Positions 12,159-25,303 of a stretch of 64,000 bases of DNA are shown here, piece by piece. The translations under genes and the position numbers were made by a program. Within the stretch, counting starts at the first letter, position 1. Each line of letters begins with the position of its first letter. The stretch is from Chloroflexota bacterium. Lineage in GTDB: Bacteria > Chloroflexota > Dehalococcoidia > JACPQK01. Below the pieces are notes generated by a model. That model was not told the DNA's origin and ran no database searches. It was given only the letters and a program-made list of their open reading frames with translations. The stretch lies in contig JACPQM010000052.1 in NCBI GenBank assembly GCA_016190505.1, positions 21,027 through 85,026 on the forward strand, in the 5' to 3' direction.

Positions 12159-15100
12159 TTATGCCTTCAGCTCCGCCAGCGACTCCTGGATTTCTTTCAA
12201 CTCGTCGTTGGTGAGGCCCCACAAATCTGCCGCCAGTTGGTCAATGCGCCTCTCTATGGCGGCAACTGTCTCCTGGTCGCCCTCCGCCGCTGCCTGGTGC
12301 GCCTGCTGGGAGAGAGCGACCAACTCGCGGTGGATCTTGTCTCCAGCCTTGAACTTGGGGACGCGAACGTGCTCAAGAATATGAGGGTCAGGATGCAGCA
12401 CAATACAGTTCTTGGATGCAAAGCGAAAGGGCGAGGAATTGACCATGCCGCAAACGTAATGGGCCTCCTGCCTGCCGCCGCAAGAGACCGCTACCAGAGT
12501 GTGGTCTGGCATTGCCACCTTGCCATCGGACTCCGCCACTGCGGCGTCGGCTTCTTCCCCAACTTCCCTCCATACAACCTTGTACTCAGCCAAAGTATGC
12601 TCACTAACGCCGAACATCGAATAGAACGGTGCTCCTTTTTCCATGAGCCCTCTGCTGCCGCGGTCCTTCCTCGCCCAAAGTACTTCATCAAACCGCTTGA
12701 GGTAGGCGTAGGCCTTGGGGTAGTGCAGCTTCATGTCGTCTTCAGGGATGCCCCGGCGTAGCTCGGGGTCCTGGACCATGATGATATGGGCGGAGGGTGT
12801 CGCGGCCCAGCGCCTCACATCCCTCCCTCGGAGCAATGGGTAAATCAGGTCTGGCTCGATAGCGGCCTGCACACTTTCCACTTTCGTCCTAGCGCCCTCG
12901 GTCAGGTTGGAGACCATGGCCAAGCCCTGAGGGGTGTGGCCCACCACGTTGACCCAGTACACACCGTTGGCCCCTCCGGTGTTGACCCCCTCGTGGGCCC
13001 CGTAGTCAGACTTGCCCAGGACCTTCCTTACTGCTGCCAGCGCCTTAGGCTTGCCGGTGAGCCAGGCGGAAGTAGGGTCGGCAGCGTCAATCGGTTCGGC
13101 TTCGAACTTCCGGTAGGTGGCAACATCAAGCACCTGCCGGAATGAGAAATCGGTGCCAATGCCAATGCCCTTGACCTTCTTCCACCAGAAGTTGTAGCTG
13201 ACCGGGTACCTGGTGGGCCTGCCCTTCTCCAGCACGACTATGCTGGTCCTGTTACTGGCCCCCTCAAAGGGTTGAAGCTTCGTCATGTCGTCCACGGCGA
13301 GCACCTGAAGGCGCGTGCCATCGCCCAGGACAAAGCGCCTGAATCCCTGGCCCGCCCCCGAGGTCTTGAACACCGACTGGGTGATCACGAAGCCGAGCTT
13401 ACCGCTCGGGTGCAGGTAGTCGTGCATGGCCGAATAGGTCATGAGCATCGAGATGTCTTTCTTGCCCTTGCCCAGGATGGTGTCCATGCCGCCGTGCGGA
13501 AATAGGCCGTGATAGACCCAAAGGCGCTTGGTGTCGTTCCGGTAGTCGTCGGGCAAGCTCTCCCAGTTCACCCACGGGGGATTGCCCGCCACATAGTCGA
13601 AGTGACCGCAGAACAAGGGAGCGAAGGCGTTCTTAATGATGCGCGCCCAGATACCGTTGATGGCCCTTTCGTCGAGCTCCCTGATCCTGGCGTAAAGCTG
13701 CTCCAGGGCTTGAATGTCGTGGGCATCCTTACCTTCTACCAGAGGGAAAGCTTGGAGCAGGCGCTTGCGGAACTCACTGACCGCGTACTTGCTGTCTACG
13801 CACTCCTCGACCAGCCCGGCAAGCTGGTCAATGTACTGCGCCTTGACCAGGGAGCCGGGTATGGCGAACTCCCCCACCACCGTTTTGAAGCGATAGAGGC
13901 GCTCCTCGGCACCCACCATGCGCACCTGCTTCTGGCCCTTCTCAGGCTTCTTGGCTTCTTCCGGCTCAACCATGTCTTGCCCCGCCTGGGACGGCGTAAG
14001 GATGGAGTCGCAAAGGTAGACAGGGATGTTTACGTCGAAGTCCCGCTGCGCCTGGAGGAGGTCGCCCAGGGCCAGGAGGTAGTTGGTGCGGGCGGAGATG
14101 ATGGCCAAGGGGTTCAGGTCGAATCCCTGTATGTTGGACAGGATTTTGCTCAGCACGTCCGCCGACCGGATCGGGCGCTCAGCGCAGTGCTCCTTCACGC
14201 GCTTGATGGCCAGTACCAGGAAGGTGCCGGAGCCACAGGCGGGGTCCAGTAGCCGCTTCTCTTGCAGTCTAGGTTCGCGCTCCGAGGTGAACCCAACCTG
14301 ATTCAGCAGCCGCTCCGCGAGCCAGTCTGGGGTGTAGTACTCGCCCAGGTCATGGCGAAGCTGCCTGGGCATCACGTTCTGGTACAGCTTCTTGAGGAGG
14401 TCCCTAGTCTCGTCGGGGTCGGCGTCCAGGGTCACCAGCGAGTAGTTGGCCAGCTCAGAGACGATGCGGCGTATACCCTTGTCCACGGGTTCATCCCACA
14501 CCTCCAGATACCAGCCGAAGAAGTCGCCCTCCAGAAAGTTGCTGATCCCCAGTTGCTTGAAGATGCCGCCGCGCTCCATGTCTTTGAGGTACTTCTGTAG
14601 GCGGTCGCTGGGATAGCTGGCCACCTGGGGTAAGGCTGTGCCCAGCTTGGGGGCCACATAATAGTGGACCACCTGGAGGGCCAGAAGCTTGATAAACGTG
14701 GCGTAGTAGGTGTGGATGGAGAAAAACAGCCTGAAGGCGTTGGGCTTGGGGTCCTGGACACCGTACTGCCTGGCCACGGCCCGTACGTCCAGGCGTGGCG
14801 AGCCTTCCTCGTAGCCGCAGACCTCGCTGAACTGCTGCCGCCACTGGCCGTATATTACCGTGACTTTCGGGCTGGGCGACTCGGCCAGCGCCTTGTAGAG
14901 AGAGCTGACGGCGAGGCGTGCCACATTGGTGTTCTCGCCAAAGTCCCGGACCAGGTTGTCGGCGGTCAGAGCTTTCTCAGTGCTAAGCAGGTACAGTGAG
15001 GCAAGAAAACGTCCGGTAGAATCGGCTGCTACTGGGAGGGGATCATCGGCATGCCACACACCGCCCCGGAAGCGACAGAAGATGAAGAAGAAGCCATCGG

Positions 15101-15487: not shown

Positions 15488-17212
15488 CTATGCCTGCTGC
15501 TGCCTGTAGGCAGGCTTGGGGAAGACAACCTTTACGGGCTGGCGGTATATGGCGTGAGAGAGCAGGAGCTCACCCTTGTTGAGGCGGGTCACGTTGAGCT
15601 TCAAGTCGTCGTCCAGGAACTTGTAGTCAGGCTGGAGCACTTCGGCGGAACCAGAGCGCCCCAAGACCTTGGTCGCGGCGTTGCCAGTGACGCGCGAATG
15701 CACGGCGCTCATGAACTGTTGGGCCGAGACGAGGATGACCCCCAGGGACCGCCCCCTCTCCGCGATGTCCAACACTTGCTCGGAGATTGGCGATGTTTTC
15801 GCGCCGCTGGGGGCATATTTGTTCAGCTCGTCCACGAAGAAGATGATCTTGTCAGGTACTTCCTCTTCGCCTTCTTCAGGGGCCTCGGCCTTGAGAGCGT
15901 AGACGGTCTTAAGCAGGTCGCCGAACACCAAGGTCTGCTCGGCGTCGGCAAGCTTGGCTATGTCCACCACGTAAACATGGCCGCCCTTGATCTTGCCTAT
16001 CTCGGCGCTGAGCACTTTCTCGTTGATGGCACGGGATTCCACGAAGATCCCCGTCTGCCGGGTGTGAACCAGACGGCGAAGATGTCTTCGGAACTTACCT
16101 ACTGAGGACCCGAGGTGGTCTCCCAGCCTTACGGTCTTCTTTGCGGTGGGGTCAAACAGCGGTGGACCATAAAGCAAGGTCATCCAACTGCGCACGGCCT
16201 TGAAATCGGCCTGTCCTCCCTGGAGGCCAATCATGATGTCTCCGATGATGGACTCCATCGTCCCAGAGGGGTCCGAGACATCGCTGAAGAGCAGGTCTAG
16301 CTTGTCGGCAGTGGCTTCAAGGTCGTAGGCGTAGGTGGTGTAGATGCTAGGCGGGAAGAAGCTGTTGGGCTGAATCCCATCCTTGCTTCGCGGCAGGAAA
16401 TAGTGGACTTTGCCCGGCTCAAAGGGCTTGGGTTCCAGGCCCAGCTTCTCCCACTTCTCCTTCTCTTCGGGCGGCAGGTCCGGGCCCCGTTCATCAATGT
16501 GCAGCAAGTCGGCCTGCTTCACGTTCATGATGATGACGGCTATCTTCGTCGGATCGTCGGCTTTCTGAAGTATAGACTGGATGATGAACATGGCGTAGGA
16601 AGTCTTCGTCGCCAGCCCGCTGATCCCCGAGATGTTGATATGGGCAGATTCCGGGCCCAGCACGTAGCGGCGGTCAATGTAAGCCACCGCAGAAGCGCCG
16701 TTGCTCATGCTGATCAAACCGGCAGGAACTCGGTTTTTCAACTCCATTTGGTCAATGCCCAGAGCCTCTTCAATCCCATTGGCATCCGCAAACGTAACCA
16801 CTCGTTCGTTGGGAACAGGCATGTACACATTGGCGTTATTGCTGAGGACATTCACTTTGGCTATGGTGGTGCCCTGGCGAGGCGTGTTCGGTTCCTCGGC
16901 CAGACTACCGAAATTGCTGGATATAAAGTTGGCCAGGTGATTGGGCGCATCGGTCCGGTGTTCAAGGGTGGTGACCAGGCCGTAGGTCTTGCTGGCCTTG
17001 TTGTCCGGAGCAACCTGACCGACTTGCACAATGTCAAACGGGTTGACTATGACTTCGGGCGAAAGCCAGAAATTGAACTTGTCCGAGGTGCTGGGGTCTC
17101 GCTCCGTGGCGGAACTGCGCCCGACGGGCGCCTCGGCCGCCTTCCCCGGGGTTTGAGCTCCGTTCTTCTCGAGGGTGACCTGTGTAGGGGCTTGTATGCT
17201 CTCGTTCACCAT
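15488..17212 (-). CDS. HerA/FtsK-family ATPase with N-terminal HAS-barrel-like domain
   Basis: Variant Walker A GISGLATKTS, Walker B IFFVDELNKY and arginine-finger region ERGRSLGVILVSAQQ. ATG at 17212 follows GGAGGAGG. Confidence 0.85.
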   Translation of the reverse strand: MVNESIQAPTQVTLEKNGAQTPGKAAEAPVGRSSATERDPSTSDKFNFWLSPEVIVNPFDIVQVGQVAPDNKASKTYGLVTTLEHRTDAPNHLANFISSNFGSLAEEPNTPRQGTTIAKVNVLSNNANVYMPVPNERVVTFADANGIEEALGIDQMELKNRVPAGLISMSNGASAVAYIDRRYVLGPESAHINISGISGLATKTSYAMFIIQSILQKADDPTKIAVIIMNVKQADLLHIDERGPDLPPEEKEKWEKLGLEPKPFEPGKVHYFLPRSKDGIQPNSFFPPSIYTTYAYDLEATADKLDLLFSDVSDPSGTMESIIGDIMIGLQGGQADFKAVRSWMTLLYGPPLFDPTAKKTVRLGDHLGSSVGKFRRHLRRLVHTRQTGIFVESRAINEKVLSAEIGKIKGGHVYVVDIAKLADAEQTLVFGDLLKTVYALKAEAPEEGEEEVPDKIIFFVDELNKYAPSGAKTSPISEQVLDIAERGRSLGVILVSAQQFMSAVHSRVTGNAATKVLGRSGSAEVLQPDYKFLDDDLKLNVTRLNKGELLLSHAIYRQPVKVVFPKPAYRQQQA

Positions 17213-19793: not shown

Positions 19794-20379
19794 CTGGCCC
19801 TGCGACGCGTCAAACGCCCGCGCTGTGTCGCTGCGAAGCTGGGTTGTTGTCGGTGGCAGGGTCACACGCGCTGTCCCACCTGCCCACGTCACCCTTTGTG
19901 TCAACAAACGTTTCGCCCATTCCCGACCCTCCCCGGATTACCCACATAACCGCTAGTTCCTCTTGTGGCACGCAAGGGCAGATTGTTCCACGCCGCTTGC
20001 GGCTCGTGGGTGGGGCAACCCGATCGGCTGGGCCAGCGCGGCCCTGTGGTGGCCCTGGCGTGCCCTCGCAGGCCCTCGCCCAGGGTCGGGCATCACACAA
20101 TGCTCAGCCAAGGCCCTGAGGCCGCCAGGGGCTGGGCCGCCTTGCCCTGGCCTTTCGTCTTCCGCTCGCCCCTGCCTTTGCGAACGCCTTGGCCCTTCGG
20201 CTCTGCCTCAGAGAGACAGATAGCAAGACATAGAGAGGCAGAGATACAGAGGGAACAAAGTAGTGCCTTTTCCAGGGGGCACTTTTCCCCCTATTGTGGG
20301 ACGATAAGGATGCTAGATTTTGAATCTAGCTGGCACCTTGACAACTGTATACGGTCCCTGGCACCAGGTGGCACCTTGG

Positions 20380-20720
20380 GCTAGGAAAGCAAGGTCACCG
20401 GAAGCTGGAAGCCTGTTAGGCAAGTCCGAATGGCATGGCGTAGCCAGACCTAAGCCAAGGCGGTAGTGACCTTGGCGAAGCGATACCGTAGCAGTCTACG
20501 CCTCAGACCTAGCCAGTCTGGGGACATACTACCGACATAGGGTTAGGCCAGTCCCGACAATGTCGGGACGCCAGTAGCGTGGATTTAGCCCGACTATGGG
20601 TTTGCTATAGCGTTCCCGCTACTGGTTCGGCAACCTAACCCTTCCGACTAGTCCCGACAGTAGTCGGGATCGCCCACCGCTTGGGCGGGGCGCAGTCCCC
20701 ACAAGTCGGCTGTGCGCAAT
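20380..20720 (+). ncRNA. Candidate large structured non-coding RNA / leader
   Basis: No credible ORF. Nested helices: 20390-98/20466-74 (9 bp), 20487-500 hairpin, 20501-23 hairpin, 20539-47/20634-42 (9 bp), 20551-69 hairpin, 20571-79/20617-25 (9 bp) and 20651-70 hairpin. Confidence 0.55.
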
Positions 20721-21294
20721 CTACAAACGAAAGGATTGAGCATGCCCGACGTCAAGACACCTCAGTACATTATGGACCTTCTGCGCCCCATGTCCCAACA
20801 GTCCAACGCTGACCGGCGGGTGTGGAGCATCCCGCTCCAGACGGTCTGGGTGCCCTTCTTCACCGCCACCAACGTGGTGGGGCAGACGCGCCTGGCCGAC
20901 GAGAGCCTGGGCGCCCCCCTGCGCCTGGCCAAGGACAAGGACGGGGCCGTCCGGTTCACCAAGCAGGGCCGTCCCGTCATCTCCGTGGCCAAGGAGCTTT
21001 CGACCAACGTCCGCATGGTGCGGGAGAACTTCCAGGCCGGCCTGGTGGCCTTCACTTCCCACGTGCGCAAGGCCAACGCCGAGGGCTACAAGTCCCAGGT
21101 GGAGCGCGCCCTGGCCGCAGGCCAGCCCATCGTCGAGAGCGACGGTAAGGCCCTGGTCGAGGCCATATCCGAGCGCGAGGAAGCCGAGGCCAAGGCCTCG
21201 GCCAGGGCGCCCCAGGACACCCGCGAGCCTGTGGCCGCATAGGAACCCCAGTCAGCGCATAGTCCCTCTTGTGGGGACTTCGCCCCGTCCAAGC
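20679..21294. repeat. Imperfect 40-bp inverted repeat (20679-20717 / 21255-21294) flanking ORF 20742-21242
   Basis: gcttgggcggggcgcagtccccacaagtcgg-ctgtgcgc vs the reverse complement gcttggacggggcgaagtccccacaagagggactatgcgc: 34 of 40 positions match, and two of the mismatches are G-U compatible on the + strand. Confidence 0.85.
20742..21242 (+). CDS. Hypothetical protein (166 aa) of the integrative element
   Basis: AAGGA RBS before ATG 20742; strong GC3 coding bias. Confidence 0.8.
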   Translation: MPDVKTPQYIMDLLRPMSQQSNADRRVWSIPLQTVWVPFFTATNVVGQTRLADESLGAPLRLAKDKDGAVRFTKQGRPVISVAKELSTNVRMVRENFQAGLVAFTSHVRKANAEGYKSQVERALAAGQPIVESDGKALVEAISEREEAEAKASARAPQDTREPVAA

Positions 21295-21319
21295 AAAGTC
21301 TGAGGGGCAGGAGCGAGCT

Positions 21320-21949
21320 ATGCGCTATCCTCAGTGGGCGACGCCGGAGCGAAGGGCGCACCTGGTGGCCATGTGGTCCAGGCTGGGCAACCGGTGTCTC
21401 TTGGGACACCTGGGCTGTAGTGAGCCGGAGCACTTTGTCCATACCAGGGTCAAGCCCGAGGTGGTGGGTGTCCCCGTGGCCCTCAAGGTTGTGGGCAAGG
21501 ACGGCACAGTCCGCGTGCTCAACACCCACCAGCCCCGCAAGGTCTACGTCCAGACCGCCGAGTGGGTAGGCGGCATCTACTACCTGGTGGAAGACGAGGT
21601 TGTCCAGGAGTGGGTGAGCGACGACAGGGCCGAGAGGGCCGCCTTGCTTCAGGCGGAGAGACGGCGACTCCATGACGACCAGTACCGTATCCGCCAGGGC
21701 CAGTGGGACAACGTAGCCCGTGAGCAGTGGTCAGAGCGCCACGGCATCTACTACCTGGAAGGCATGACCGTGGACGCCCTCACCCACAAGCGGGTGGCCA
21801 AGGTGCGCATCGCCAGTAGCCCCGTGCGTCTCTGGGTAACCATGCCCAGCCAGAACGCCAAGCGCAAGGCCCGGCGCTATGGCAAAGAGGGCGCCAGGAG
21901 CGACGACGAAGCCATCGTCCAGGCGGTGAAGCACTACTTGAATAGCTAG
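21320..21949 (+). CDS. Hypothetical protein with possible C-H-C-H zinc site (CLLGHLGCSEPEH)
   Basis: GAGGGG/AGGAG RBS; strong coding bias; 209 aa from ATG 21320. Confidence 0.75.
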   Translation: MRYPQWATPERRAHLVAMWSRLGNRCLLGHLGCSEPEHFVHTRVKPEVVGVPVALKVVGKDGTVRVLNTHQPRKVYVQTAEWVGGIYYLVEDEVVQEWVSDDRAERAALLQAERRRLHDDQYRIRQGQWDNVAREQWSERHGIYYLEGMTVDALTHKRVAKVRIASSPVRLWVTMPSQNAKRKARRYGKEGARSDDEAIVQAVKHYLNS

Positions 21950-23591: not shown

Positions 23592-25031
23592 ATGCGCGGC
23601 ATGGGCTTGACACCGGATAGGGGCTATCCTCAGAATTGGTGCCTAAAGAGCGGAAGCCCCTGTGCGGGGGCGATTGATGCCGGAGCAGCGAGGAGGCCCC
23701 TCATGCCCAGAAGCATGGCCAGACTAGCGCAGCCCCGGGGCGATGCCAAGGCCCCGGTTCCATCTACGCCATCCCCAGAGTCAGTAATGGCCGATGCCGA
23801 TGCGTTCTTTGCCGAGGGTACCCCAGGCGAAGACTTTCTCTCTTCATTGGAAGTAAAGCAAGTCCCATACCCCAGCAACCTTGACATTCAAGATCGCATC
23901 GAGGAAACCAAGGCCGAGATCTCCCACCGCATTGCGGAACTGGAAACCCGTTTGGCGCAACTGGGGGGCATTGTATCGGCGACCTCACATCCCCAAGTAC
24001 CGAGCATCTCGACCGCATCCCTTATCGATCTCTTGCTAGCGCAAAAAGCCCACAAGGGCGTGAAAGATAGTCATGGCAGGACTCTGGCGAAGCACGTCAG
24101 GCGGTTTGGCAAGGCCTTCCCATCCTTGCCCCTCGACTCTCAGGCCATCATTGAGTATCTGTCGCAGTTCAATGGAATATCCGGCCGCACGCGGCGGAAT
24201 CACCAGGATAGTCTACGACAGCTTTACAAGGTCGCCGCGGCCCGGCTTGGCGTCCCTAATGTGTTGGCCCAGATTGAACGCCCGCTGGTGCGCCAGCGGC
24301 CGCCACGGACCCTATCCCTGGACCAAGTGCGCCTCGTCGTCGCCGCCGCAATGGAAGGAATGGAGAGGACTGCGCTGGATCTGGCACTAGGCCATGGCTG
24401 GCGGCAAGTGGAGGTCAGGAGGATAACTGGCGAAGATGTCCGCGCAATCGAGGCAGGTCTGATTGCATGCCACGGGAAAGAACGAGAAGAGCTCGCGCCC
24501 GTGCTTCCCGAAACCGTAGAGCGACTGTCACGGCTAGCTGAGGGGTGTTCAGGGCCTATCTTCCTGGACCGCCGGGGGCGCTCGCAGCCGTTGGGTGAGG
24601 ATGGCATGAGCGATTTGCTCAAAGGCATCATGAACAGGGCGAGGGTGAGTGGTTTCAGTGGCCACGACCTTCGCCGTACGTTCGCAACCCTCGTGCGCGA
24701 TGCCTCAGGGGACGAGCTGCTGGCAATGAGGCTGCTTCGCGATCGGGTTCCTGGCGTGGCAGACCGTTACCTCGCATCCAATCTGGGAGAACTTTGCCGG
24801 GCGCTTCAAAACTACTCCCCGGTTAGGCAGATCCATCACGAAGTGCCGCATCACAACAACGGCCAGGGGCGCCGCACTGTCGACGCCAACCCCCCGGCAA
24901 ACCCTCACGCACCCCCCCGTCAGACCGCAGCTTTAGCAGGCCGGGGGGATACATGGTGGAGACGGGGGGGAGTCGAACCCCCCGTCCAGAGACGGACACC
25001 CAGGCTGCCTACAAGCTTATCCGACCATTAG
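23592..25031 (+). CDS. Tyrosine recombinase / phage-type integrase (true start probably further downstream, e.g. 23703)
   Basis: Catalytic residues R (GWRQVE), K (GKE), HxxR (HDLRRTFAT) and Y (ADRY); SAM-like N-domain. The ORF tail overlaps the ssrA 3' end in antisense. Confidence 0.85.
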   Translation: MRGMGLTPDRGYPQNWCLKSGSPCAGAIDAGAARRPLMPRSMARLAQPRGDAKAPVPSTPSPESVMADADAFFAEGTPGEDFLSSLEVKQVPYPSNLDIQDRIEETKAEISHRIAELETRLAQLGGIVSATSHPQVPSISTASLIDLLLAQKAHKGVKDSHGRTLAKHVRRFGKAFPSLPLDSQAIIEYLSQFNGISGRTRRNHQDSLRQLYKVAAARLGVPNVLAQIERPLVRQRPPRTLSLDQVRLVVAAAMEGMERTALDLALGHGWRQVEVRRITGEDVRAIEAGLIACHGKEREELAPVLPETVERLSRLAEGCSGPIFLDRRGRSQPLGEDGMSDLLKGIMNRARVSGFSGHDLRRTFATLVRDASGDELLAMRLLRDRVPGVADRYLASNLGELCRALQNYSPVRQIHHEVPHHNNGQGRRTVDANPPANPHAPPRQTAALAGRGDTWWRRGGVEPPVQRRTPRLPTSLSDH

Positions 25032-25303
25032 CTCTCGCCCTGCCTGTGGCCGTCGGCCGCCCCCTGGCAGGGCCAGTCGGTTACTTTTCTTTGACGGGCC
25101 AGACCGACATAGGGCCCATCGCACCCCTTCTGTTCGGCGCCTTGACCAGGCCCGAAGGGTGAAGCCTGGGAGGCGTAGTCGCTGTTTAGGCGGCTAGGGC
25201 GAAATCGTTTGCGCCAGTTATGTTTTGCCCCGTTTTTACGAGGTCAGGGCGCCTCGGCTTGCCATCCTGGGACGCCACACCCCTGTCGAAACCACGCGTC
25301 CCC
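24954..25303 (-). ncRNA. ssrA: tmRNA (350 nt); tag reading frame (A)GANDFALAA*
   Basis: 5' GGGGACG pairs with 3' CGTCTCC-ACCA including the G3-U alanine identity pair. T-arm GGTTCGACTCC; ATAACT-GGC GCA AAC GAT TTC GCC CTA GCC GCC TAA; smpB lies ~1 kb upstream. Confidence 0.95.

Follow-up and report, generated by a model that had tools for sequence, protein, structure and literature searches.

The gene-enclosing helix and its conservation

We analysed a 64,000-nucleotide (nt) stretch of DNA from a Chloroflexota bacterium of the class Dehalococcoidia (assembly GCA_016190505.1, contig JACPQM010000052.1, positions 21,027 to 85,026; hereafter the window, with positions counted from its first letter). 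The region studied here appears to be transcribed as a polycistronic unit of an integrative element of Dehalococcoidia-type Chloroflexota, in which open reading frame 1 (ORF1; 166 aa, positions 20742 to 21242) is followed by ORF2 (209 aa, positions 21320 to 21949); both genes, like all features given below unless stated otherwise, are on the + strand. ORF1 is looped out by a long-range helix, the 5' arm of which (the leader strand, 39 nt, positions 20679 to 20717) pairs with a 3' arm (the trailer strand, 40 nt, positions 21255 to 21294). Duplex prediction with RNAduplex reproduced exactly the arms and the pair counts that had been given in a preliminary description of this DNA, namely 34 Watson-Crick and two G-U pairs, interrupted by one 1-nt mismatch and one small internal loop (-73.4 kcal/mol). 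The placement of the arms, just before the ribosome-binding site and just after the stop codon, also held: the 5' arm and the ATG of ORF1 at 20742 are 24 nt apart, and 12 nt separate the stop codon, which ends at 21242, from the 3' arm. The Shine-Dalgarno sequence (SD) of ORF1 (AAAGGA, positions 20730 to 20735, after a conserved AATCTA block) is therefore within the loop, and that of ORF2 (GGAG, positions 21310 to 21313) is near the helix base, both as read from the sequence.

Such a helix is exceptional for this DNA. Using as control 1500 pairs of 60-nt segments of equal spacing taken elsewhere in the window, the duplex of the 60-nt segments at the locus reached -76.4 kcal/mol, compared with a control mean of -35.1 (standard deviation 8.2) and a control minimum of -67.3 (z about -5). 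The arms are the sole strong long-range inverted repeat (IR) between positions 15000 and 26000 of the window, just as the ORF1-flanking repeat is the sole strong one in the 20-kb loci examined, and the IR together with ORF1 is single-copy in its own genome. The preliminary description had further suggested that gtctgagg (positions 21298 to 21305) pairs with cctcagac (8 nt, positions 20501 to 20508). The complement does exist, but 8 nt is what chance would give for this search space, and relatives do not preserve the pairing. We also rejected the leader and the region past the 3' arm as partners in a second conserved long-range helix, which is absent from the relatives: the own-locus score (median 8) equals that of the cross-locus control (median 8). 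It is possible that the 8-nt pairing extends the helix in the window locus only, given that its two strands lie 3 nt past the 3' arm and 5 nt past the 3' strand of P1, a predicted leader helix described below.

Homologous loci were obtained by an alignment-based scan of genome contigs; a scan with a single sequence gave nothing. In all six loci from relative genomes, an IR of 20-36 nt surrounds the homologous ORF, with arm sequences that differ from one another. For a larger comparison, we scored the best ungapped IR between 130 nt upstream and 90 nt downstream of ORF1 in 80 non-redundant loci with full flanks. Arms homologous to those of the window flank ORF1 above background in 79 of these loci, so that the absence of the repeat from homologous elements, which would have spoken against a function, was not observed. 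The median IR score is 23, compared with a median of 7 and a 95th percentile of 10 for mismatched locus pairs, and the median arm length is 29 nt, so that the helix comprises about 29 bp in relatives versus about 36 bp in the window.

The paired state, rather than the sequence, of most of the helix is conserved. As a single structure could not be fitted to the MAFFT alignment of the full set of 69 arm constructs, which contained too many gaps, a subgroup of 19 in-register sequences was taken instead, giving a helix of 32 pairs. In these loci, 95.4% of the positions are paired, compared with 28-48% when the partners are slid by 1-3 columns; the compensatory changes that the preliminary description had suggested looking for are present, 26 of the 32 pairs varying on both sides, and none of 500 shuffles attained the observed values. 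This alignment was made from the arms and is thus biased towards structure, although the column-wise compensatory changes still stand. Only the loop-proximal part of about 10 bp is conserved in sequence (CCAURCGCYA / URGCGYAUGG, followed by AAUCUA, and CUGUGCGC / GCGCAUAG in the window), whereas the rest of the helix varies freely; the AATCTA block comes after the 5' arm in most loci.

The mismatches between the arms also reveal on which strand pairing has been maintained. With arms aligned at the DNA level and no bonus given to wobble pairs, 86 mismatches are of the G-T type (G-U in the sense RNA) and 28 of the A-C type (G-U on the opposite strand), in addition to 38 transversion-type mismatches (binomial p = 5e-8), and the bias persists after dereplication to <65% arm identity (34 G-T versus 13 A-C). 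Compensatory changes together with this sense-strand G-U bias indicate a single-stranded structure, most likely RNA, and not a DNA recombination site, which strongly supports the RNA-level role put forward in the preliminary description. The arms are moreover positioned relative to translation signals in a manner that favours mRNA over sense-strand single-stranded DNA. In relatives, the distance from the end of the 5' arm to the start codon has a median of 27 nt (interquartile range 24-30), with the SD inside the loop and SD-like sequences 7-12 nt ahead of the ORF1 start codon, and the distance from the stop codon to the 3' arm has a median of 9 nt (7-12). The SD of ORF2 starts a median of 4 nt past the end of the 3' arm, and its start codon follows 16 nt (14-18) past it. 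A ribosome covers roughly positions -20 to +15 around the P-site codon. Both helix ends are thus located just outside the footprint of an initiating or terminating ORF1 ribosome, implying that the helix can coexist with translation of the loop, whereas the SD and start codon of ORF2 abut the helix base, so that initiation at ORF2 should be sensitive to the state of that base. Taken together, the element almost certainly carries a conserved, functional helix that forms in a single strand, most likely as RNA; its strand specificity, geometry and conservation are observations of the present analysis.

The leader, its boxA-like element and the host 16S unit

A long leader precedes the 5' arm. When the 330 nt ahead of the arm are aligned for 27 loci, the same features appear in a constant order, namely a TGnTATTGT-like motif within an A/T-rich block, a hairpin of variable sequence, an almost invariant single-stranded block, (A)GCACCTTAACAAA, and a domain closed by a helix (P1). 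The invariant block reads as the host's boxA. In the window, the corresponding boxA-like element, GCACCTTGACAAC (positions 20333 to 20345), is one base from the boxA of the host 16S leader, GCACCTTAACAAC, and identical to the 16S boxA variant of a same-class genome (G019). Directly before it, in a boxB-like position, is a hairpin, GCTAGATT-TTG-AATCTAGC (positions 20312 to 20330), legible in the sequence and in the RNAfold prediction; relatives have a hairpin of other sequence at the same spot. TATTGT at positions 20292 to 20297 is a weak candidate for the -10 element of a leader promoter, suggested by the TGnTATTGT-like block that is conserved ahead of the hairpin and boxA in relatives.

Host 16S leaders carry boxA (GGCACCTTAACAACTGG); in the own genome and in two element-carrying relatives, the 16S leader contains GGCAC(C/T)TTAACAACTGG shortly after a promoter of the TTGACA-17-TATTAT type. 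The motif is rare in these genomes. Four near-complete same-class genomes have exactly one copy each, one of them being the variant found in the window. In the own genome, the exact host 13-mer has only two occurrences, one in the 16S leader and one upstream of cas2/CRISPR, and window positions 20333 to 20345 are the only match with one mismatch. When the 300 nt before the arm were scanned with up to 2 mismatches allowed, 50 of 67 non-redundant element loci had a boxA-like block on the sense strand; the controls yielded none on the opposite strand, two in shuffled sequence and none downstream. The boxA-like element is thus likely to be functional.

The copy upstream of cas2 deserves separate mention. 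It is an exact GCACCTTAACAAC located between cas1 and cas2 (C57:29987-29999), with two G+C-rich hairpins before it and a CRISPR array downstream, and probably acts as an antiterminator for transcription of cas2 and the CRISPR array. Such a site is of a known kind: boxA elements upstream of CRISPR arrays are described in PMC7862264, which cites Stringer et al.

Between boxA and the 5' arm, the window has a structured untranslated leader (positions 20346 to 20678; RNAfold z-score -4.2), which matched no family in Rfam. In relatives, the corresponding domain of about 98 nt is shut by P1, a 6-bp helix in which five of the six pairs covary; with 2 nt between boxA and its start and about 9 nt between its end and the 5' arm, P1 cuts the linker from boxA to the arm to 2 + 9 nt. 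The leader of the window further contains two GTCCCGAC...GTCGGGA hairpins. These are GTCCCGAC-(N3-4)-GTCGGGA structures at positions 20551 to 20569 and 20652 to 20671; at least one relative (L076) has one in the equivalent place of its leader, and such a hairpin could be a protein-binding one. A partial second boxA start, GGCACCTTG, which is without the ACAAC part, was found at positions 20370 to 20378, 37 nt past the first copy. In the leaders of relatives, a nearly invariant CCGAAUAGG block (alignment columns ~180-195) resembles the segment that follows boxA in host 16S leaders (GGAUAGUGG / GAAUAGUGA), and may represent a further signal shared with these leaders.

The order of features described above is also that of the host's own 16S unit; the boxA, which the preliminary description does not mention, alters what the helix is most like. 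Leader-trailer helices of 29-32 nt were found around the 16S gene in three near-complete genomes of the same class, each preceded at close distance by a hairpin. The combination of hairpin, boxA and a helix of about 29 bp around the first gene therefore means that the element unit is laid out like the host 16S unit, with a protein gene in the loop. In the 16S units themselves (G014:C2, G006:C1 and G019:C3; loci L166-L168), boxA forms the first part of the 5' strand of the helix and is paired 72-203 nt after the 16S 3' end; we have not seen this arrangement, in which boxA is within the helix strand, described for the phylum Chloroflexota. For comparison, in the rRNA leader-trailer helices of E. 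coli and other Enterobacteriaceae, which comprise 25-40 bp, the 5' strand contains boxC and is preceded by boxA at a distance of 18-19 nt (PMC10250234).

The element shares several features with an rRNA operon leader. A hairpin is followed by a boxA close to that of the host, a covarying helix of about 30 bp with many G-U pairs surrounds the enclosed gene, and the leader strand of the element may be held near boxA via P1, which covaries in relatives and is predicted for the window. Judged by the features of an rRNA-type unit, the window has a flanking helix within the range of 25-40 bp that shows covariation (36 pairs) and an upstream boxA on the transcribed strand that matches the host's, whereas the loop holds a protein gene in place of an enclosed structural RNA. 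Several differences from rRNA operons should also be considered. The enclosed gene of the element encodes a protein, has its own SD and is conserved at the amino-acid level, the unit resides in a mobile element, and boxA is absent from about a quarter of related loci. Furthermore, unlike the host 16S unit with its boxA inside the helix strand, the boxA of the element is about 115 nt away from the helix in linear distance, and 334 nt away in the window.

Proposed expression mechanism and alternative explanations

On the basis of these features, we propose that the ORF1 unit is a cassette similar to an rRNA operon, in which antitermination by Nus factors at boxA is combined with a leader-trailer stalk that is probably cut by RNase III; we would put the probability of this reading at roughly one half. 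BoxA would recruit NusB/NusE and other Nus factors to RNA polymerase, and the resulting complex would shield the long untranslated leader and the operon from Rho while holding the leader strand near the RNA exit channel. The compact leader would keep the 5' arm close to the polymerase, such that the helix could form co-transcriptionally once the trailer strand emerges after ORF1, and could persist during translation of ORF1, being just outside the ribosome footprints. Cleavage of the stalk by RNase III would then detach the leader, release an ORF1 mRNA whose base-paired ends would be guarded from exonucleases, and make the ORF2 ribosome-binding site at the helix base accessible. The net result would be to uncouple ORF1 expression from that of the downstream genes, with ORF1 probably expressed at a higher level. 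We infer Nus binding, co-transcriptional helix formation, RNase III cleavage and the effect on expression from the architecture of the unit and from known systems. A Nus-factor complex has been reported to keep the leader near the RNA exit channel, to bridge the 5' and 3' ends and to boost co-transcriptional RNase III cleavage (bioRxiv 10.64898/2026.03.17.712431), and boxA acts on mRNAs too, where the Nus loop can repress translation, as with lambda nutL about 200 nt upstream of N (PMC5725501).

RNase III-type processing appears to be the most plausible fate of a perfect helix of 29-40 bp, and RNase III genes are present in all five of the other element-carrying genomes. For RNase III processing accompanied by differential expression, the odds appear about even. 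Of the other ideas in the preliminary description, splicing-like excision and circularisation found no support, nor did a role of ORF1 as protein partner of the RNA, beyond the conserved sequence of the loop-proximal 10 bp. More tentatively, a large family of Chloroflexota elements may have copied the expression logic of host rRNA, in which case ORF1 would be transcribed as a 'pseudo-rRNA' by Nus-modified polymerase, released by RNase III, clamped at its ends and unusually stable.

Several observations weigh against the proposed cassette. The 85%-complete assembly that contains the window yielded no RNase III gene, and a scan of the + strand with the sigma-70 consensus gave no full promoter. 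The distance from boxA to the arm is 334 nt in the window compared with a median of 115 nt in relatives, and the P1-like helix of the window (about 20344-20355 with 20485-20496 in the RNAfold centroid) is predicted only. BoxA (up to 3 mismatches) is missing in some subfamilies that have the helix, such as those of L005, L008 and L009, which means that the helix does not depend on boxA, and no co-variation between the boxA variant of the host and that of the element was apparent in one relative genome (G041). In addition, the essential role of the E. coli leader-trailer helix is in rRNA folding and is independent of RNase III (PMC10250234), so that the analogy to rRNA on its own predicts no cleavage.

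Some of these points lend weight to the main rival explanation, in which the helix stays intact as an mRNA clamp and works without RNase III. Such a clamp might block 5'-3' and 3'-5' exonucleases or the entry of an endonuclease (as in B. subtilis hbs), insulate translation of ORF1 from the leader, keep terminating ribosomes near the ORF1 start for closed-loop re-initiation, or damp translation of ORF2 at the abutted SD. The position of the helix, which narrowly clears the ribosome footprints at the start and stop of ORF1, and that of the ORF2 SD about 4 nt beyond the helix base agree with these roles, as do the retention of the helix in subfamilies without boxA, the lack of a detected RNase III gene in the incomplete own assembly and the RNase III-independent function of the E. 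coli helix. However, a nearly perfect duplex of 29-40 bp is the canonical substrate of RNase III, and as this enzyme is encoded in other host genomes, an uncleaved state would need protection; we therefore regard the clamp as rather unlikely. A lesser rival is that the helix serves as a protein-binding platform, its conserved top and AAUCUA being recognised by ORF1 or ORF2 for autoregulation or RNA capture, which takes up the suggestion in the preliminary description of a protein partner encoded in the loop. This would account for the conservation in sequence of the helix top while the remainder covaries freely, and for the strict linkage of both genes to the helix, and ORF2 has a Zn-type motif, a basic motif and many weak Foldseek rows for double-stranded RNA-binding domains (dsRBDs). 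Nevertheless, all of these matches are non-significant (best E 0.23) and the profile comparison of ORF2 with dsRBDs gives a probability of 0.2%; ORF1 has neither a nucleic-acid-binding signature nor a fold match, and the helix top might be conserved just as well because of an RNase cleavage context or of constraints on translation initiation, making the platform improbable.

Explanations at the DNA level have to be set against the strand bias and the geometry described above. The preliminary description had offered as its second option a DNA inversion switch, with the arms as recombination sites at which the tyrosine recombinase flips the ORF1 segment. The IR does delimit a discrete segment, and 2.3 kb further downstream there is a gene for a tyrosine recombinase, but the orientation of ORF1 is constant with respect to both ORF2 (none inverted among 100 loci, each from assembled sequence) and boxA, the arms differ between loci so that there is no conserved recombinase site, the 3:1 bias towards G-T mismatches on the sense strand is not predicted by recombination of double-stranded DNA, and the recombinase abuts the 3' end of the transfer-messenger RNA (tmRNA) gene in the manner of an attachment (att)-site integrase. 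This option almost certainly does not apply. An ORF within inverted repeats of 30-40 nt also has the outline of an insertion sequence (IS), and since G-T wobble pairs form in single-stranded DNA as well, ORF1 might be a small mobile cassette or IS with terminal IRs, or the stem might form in single-stranded DNA during replication or transfer. Yet ORF1 always has the same leader before it and ORF2 after it, is present in a single genomic copy and shows no transposase-like features, the loci examined revealed neither a relaxase gene nor a rolling-circle Rep gene, and the arms track the ORF1 SD, the stop codon and the ORF2 SD within a few nt, which argues for a role in mRNA. Neither ORF1 with its arms in unrelated contexts nor empty sites, with the leader joined to ORF2, were seen. 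Overall, these DNA-level origins are highly improbable, and an IS or miniature inverted-repeat transposable element was rejected as a candidate for lack of a transposase signature and because of the fixed synteny and single copy number.

The proposed rRNA-like cassette shares parts with several other systems, each of which differs from it in some respect. The leader of phage lambda N is likewise found in a mobile genome, with boxA in a long structured leader before the first gene and a double-stranded RNA structure between boxA and the SD, and in both cases cleavage would part the Nus-bound leader from the mRNA. The lambda N leader structure is sensitive to RNase III and controls translation of N. 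It is, however, a local hairpin upstream of N and not a gene-spanning helix, and boxB of lambda follows boxA and binds N, whereas the element has its hairpin ahead of boxA, in the manner of rrn leaders; family searches gave no N-like protein. The intervening sequences of 23S rRNA (Leptospira, Coxiella), which bear ORFs and are excised by RNase III, enclose the four-helix-bundle protein S23p. They resemble the element in having a small protein gene in the loop of a long stem, a stem that is there the RNase III substrate; in the element, the stem is part of an mRNA, and the predicted fold of ORF1 is different and has no match in the two libraries searched. Pairing of the 5' and 3' untranslated regions (UTRs) is known for B. 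subtilis hbs and, with RNase III, for S. aureus icaR, where it comprises about 14 bp or less and is gene-specific, the icaR pairing occluding the SD. Although these are also pairings of regions that flank one cistron, controlling mRNA stability or translation, the helix of the element is 29-40 bp long, leaves the SD free, is located within an operon and covaries across a large family. Finally, a host-type boxA on a unit other than rRNA is shared with suhB, other mRNAs and CRISPR leaders (PMC5725501, and PMC7862264 in its citation of Stringer et al.); as presented in these sources, those cases are without a leader-trailer helix around the downstream gene.

The uses of boxA found in our literature search were in rRNA, lambda, suhB and CRISPR, and none concerned a protein gene in a helix of the leader-trailer type behind the boxA of a mobile element. 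Long-range helices that enclose a gene are textbook knowledge for rRNA but rare and poorly documented for protein genes, whereas here such a helix is backed by compensatory changes in about 100 loci and combined with the host's own boxA. If the proposed cassette is correct, a mobile element would recruit the rRNA antitermination and processing machinery (Nus factors and RNase III) to set the level of one protein in an operon, and would offer a natural system of about 1 kb for studying how the Nus complex promotes distant RNA pairing while ribosomes translate the loop. The two genes concerned, ORF1 and ORF2, are the core of a widespread and uncharacterised family of elements, often with genes for ubiquitin-like conjugation.

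The encoded proteins and the integrative element

ORF1 represents a conserved family with >300 homologues that are ~50% identical and share 18 invariant residues. All of them are unnamed, and nearly all come from metagenome-assembled genomes of Chloroflexota/Dehalococcoidia and from sediment and groundwater metagenomes. Clustering at 50% identity divides the family into 281 groups, and an exhaustive profile search found the family alone, without fusion to any other domain; it was not found in the viral contigs of IMG/VR. ORF2 is strictly linked to ORF1. Of 101 informative loci, 100 have it downstream in the same orientation and none has it on the opposite strand, and among 101 relative genomes it was found in the same six as ORF1. 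Its protein has a CxxGxxxCxxxxH motif, the C, G, C and H of which are invariant near the N-terminus in the family alignment, and a basic SKNKRRKA-like motif. Both proteins were modelled with AF2 (pLDDT 83.5 for ORF1 and 88.6 for ORF2). Searches of Pfam, PHROGs, NCBIfam and PADLOC, relaxed thresholds included, returned nothing for either protein, nor did a PDB profile search, and Foldseek found no significant match for them in PDB and BFVD. The assignment of ORF2 as a dsRBD protein was rejected on the profile comparison mentioned above, which was made with the RNase III dsRBDs of relatives.

The copy of the element in the window adjoins the tmRNA gene. Downstream of ORF1-ORF2 are a small ORF, a gene similar to sigma-70 region 2, a 78-aa ORF and the tyrosine integrase gene that abuts the tmRNA 3' end. 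The integrase frame (positions 23592 to 25031, + strand) overlaps the 3' end of the tmRNA gene (positions 24954 to 25303, - strand) by 78 nt. A search of window positions 1 to 25400 for a direct repeat of the tmRNA 3' end, which would mark the left border of the element, gave none. In other Dehalococcoidia, ssrA islands of Dehalococcoides are integrated at the tmRNA gene with the serine recombinases DsiA/DsiB (PMC3146451). The element of the window is likewise integrative and located at the tmRNA gene in a member of the same bacterial class, but it has a tyrosine integrase, the ORF1-ORF2 module and another integration module, and most relatives of the module are not at ssrA.

The gene content around the module varies among relatives. 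In three of them (L056, L058 and L060), genes for Prok_Ub, Prok-E2_D, Prok-JAB, ThiF (E1-like) and a DNA polymerase III beta-like protein are located 1-6 kb past ORF1-ORF2, and relatives have a small tyrosine recombinase gene and a sigma-70-region-4-like gene upstream of it. The copy in the window is without the Prok_Ub/E2/JAB/ThiF cluster and goes directly to the sigma-like gene and the integrase. One of these relatives (L060, from G041, JACQUO010000004) also carries a type II hammerhead ribozyme (RF02276; positions 16709 to 16774, + strand), which scores 48.8 bits, above the gathering score, and is located between two small genes of the operon that bears ORF1-ORF2, where it would be a second RNA-processing device in this family of elements.

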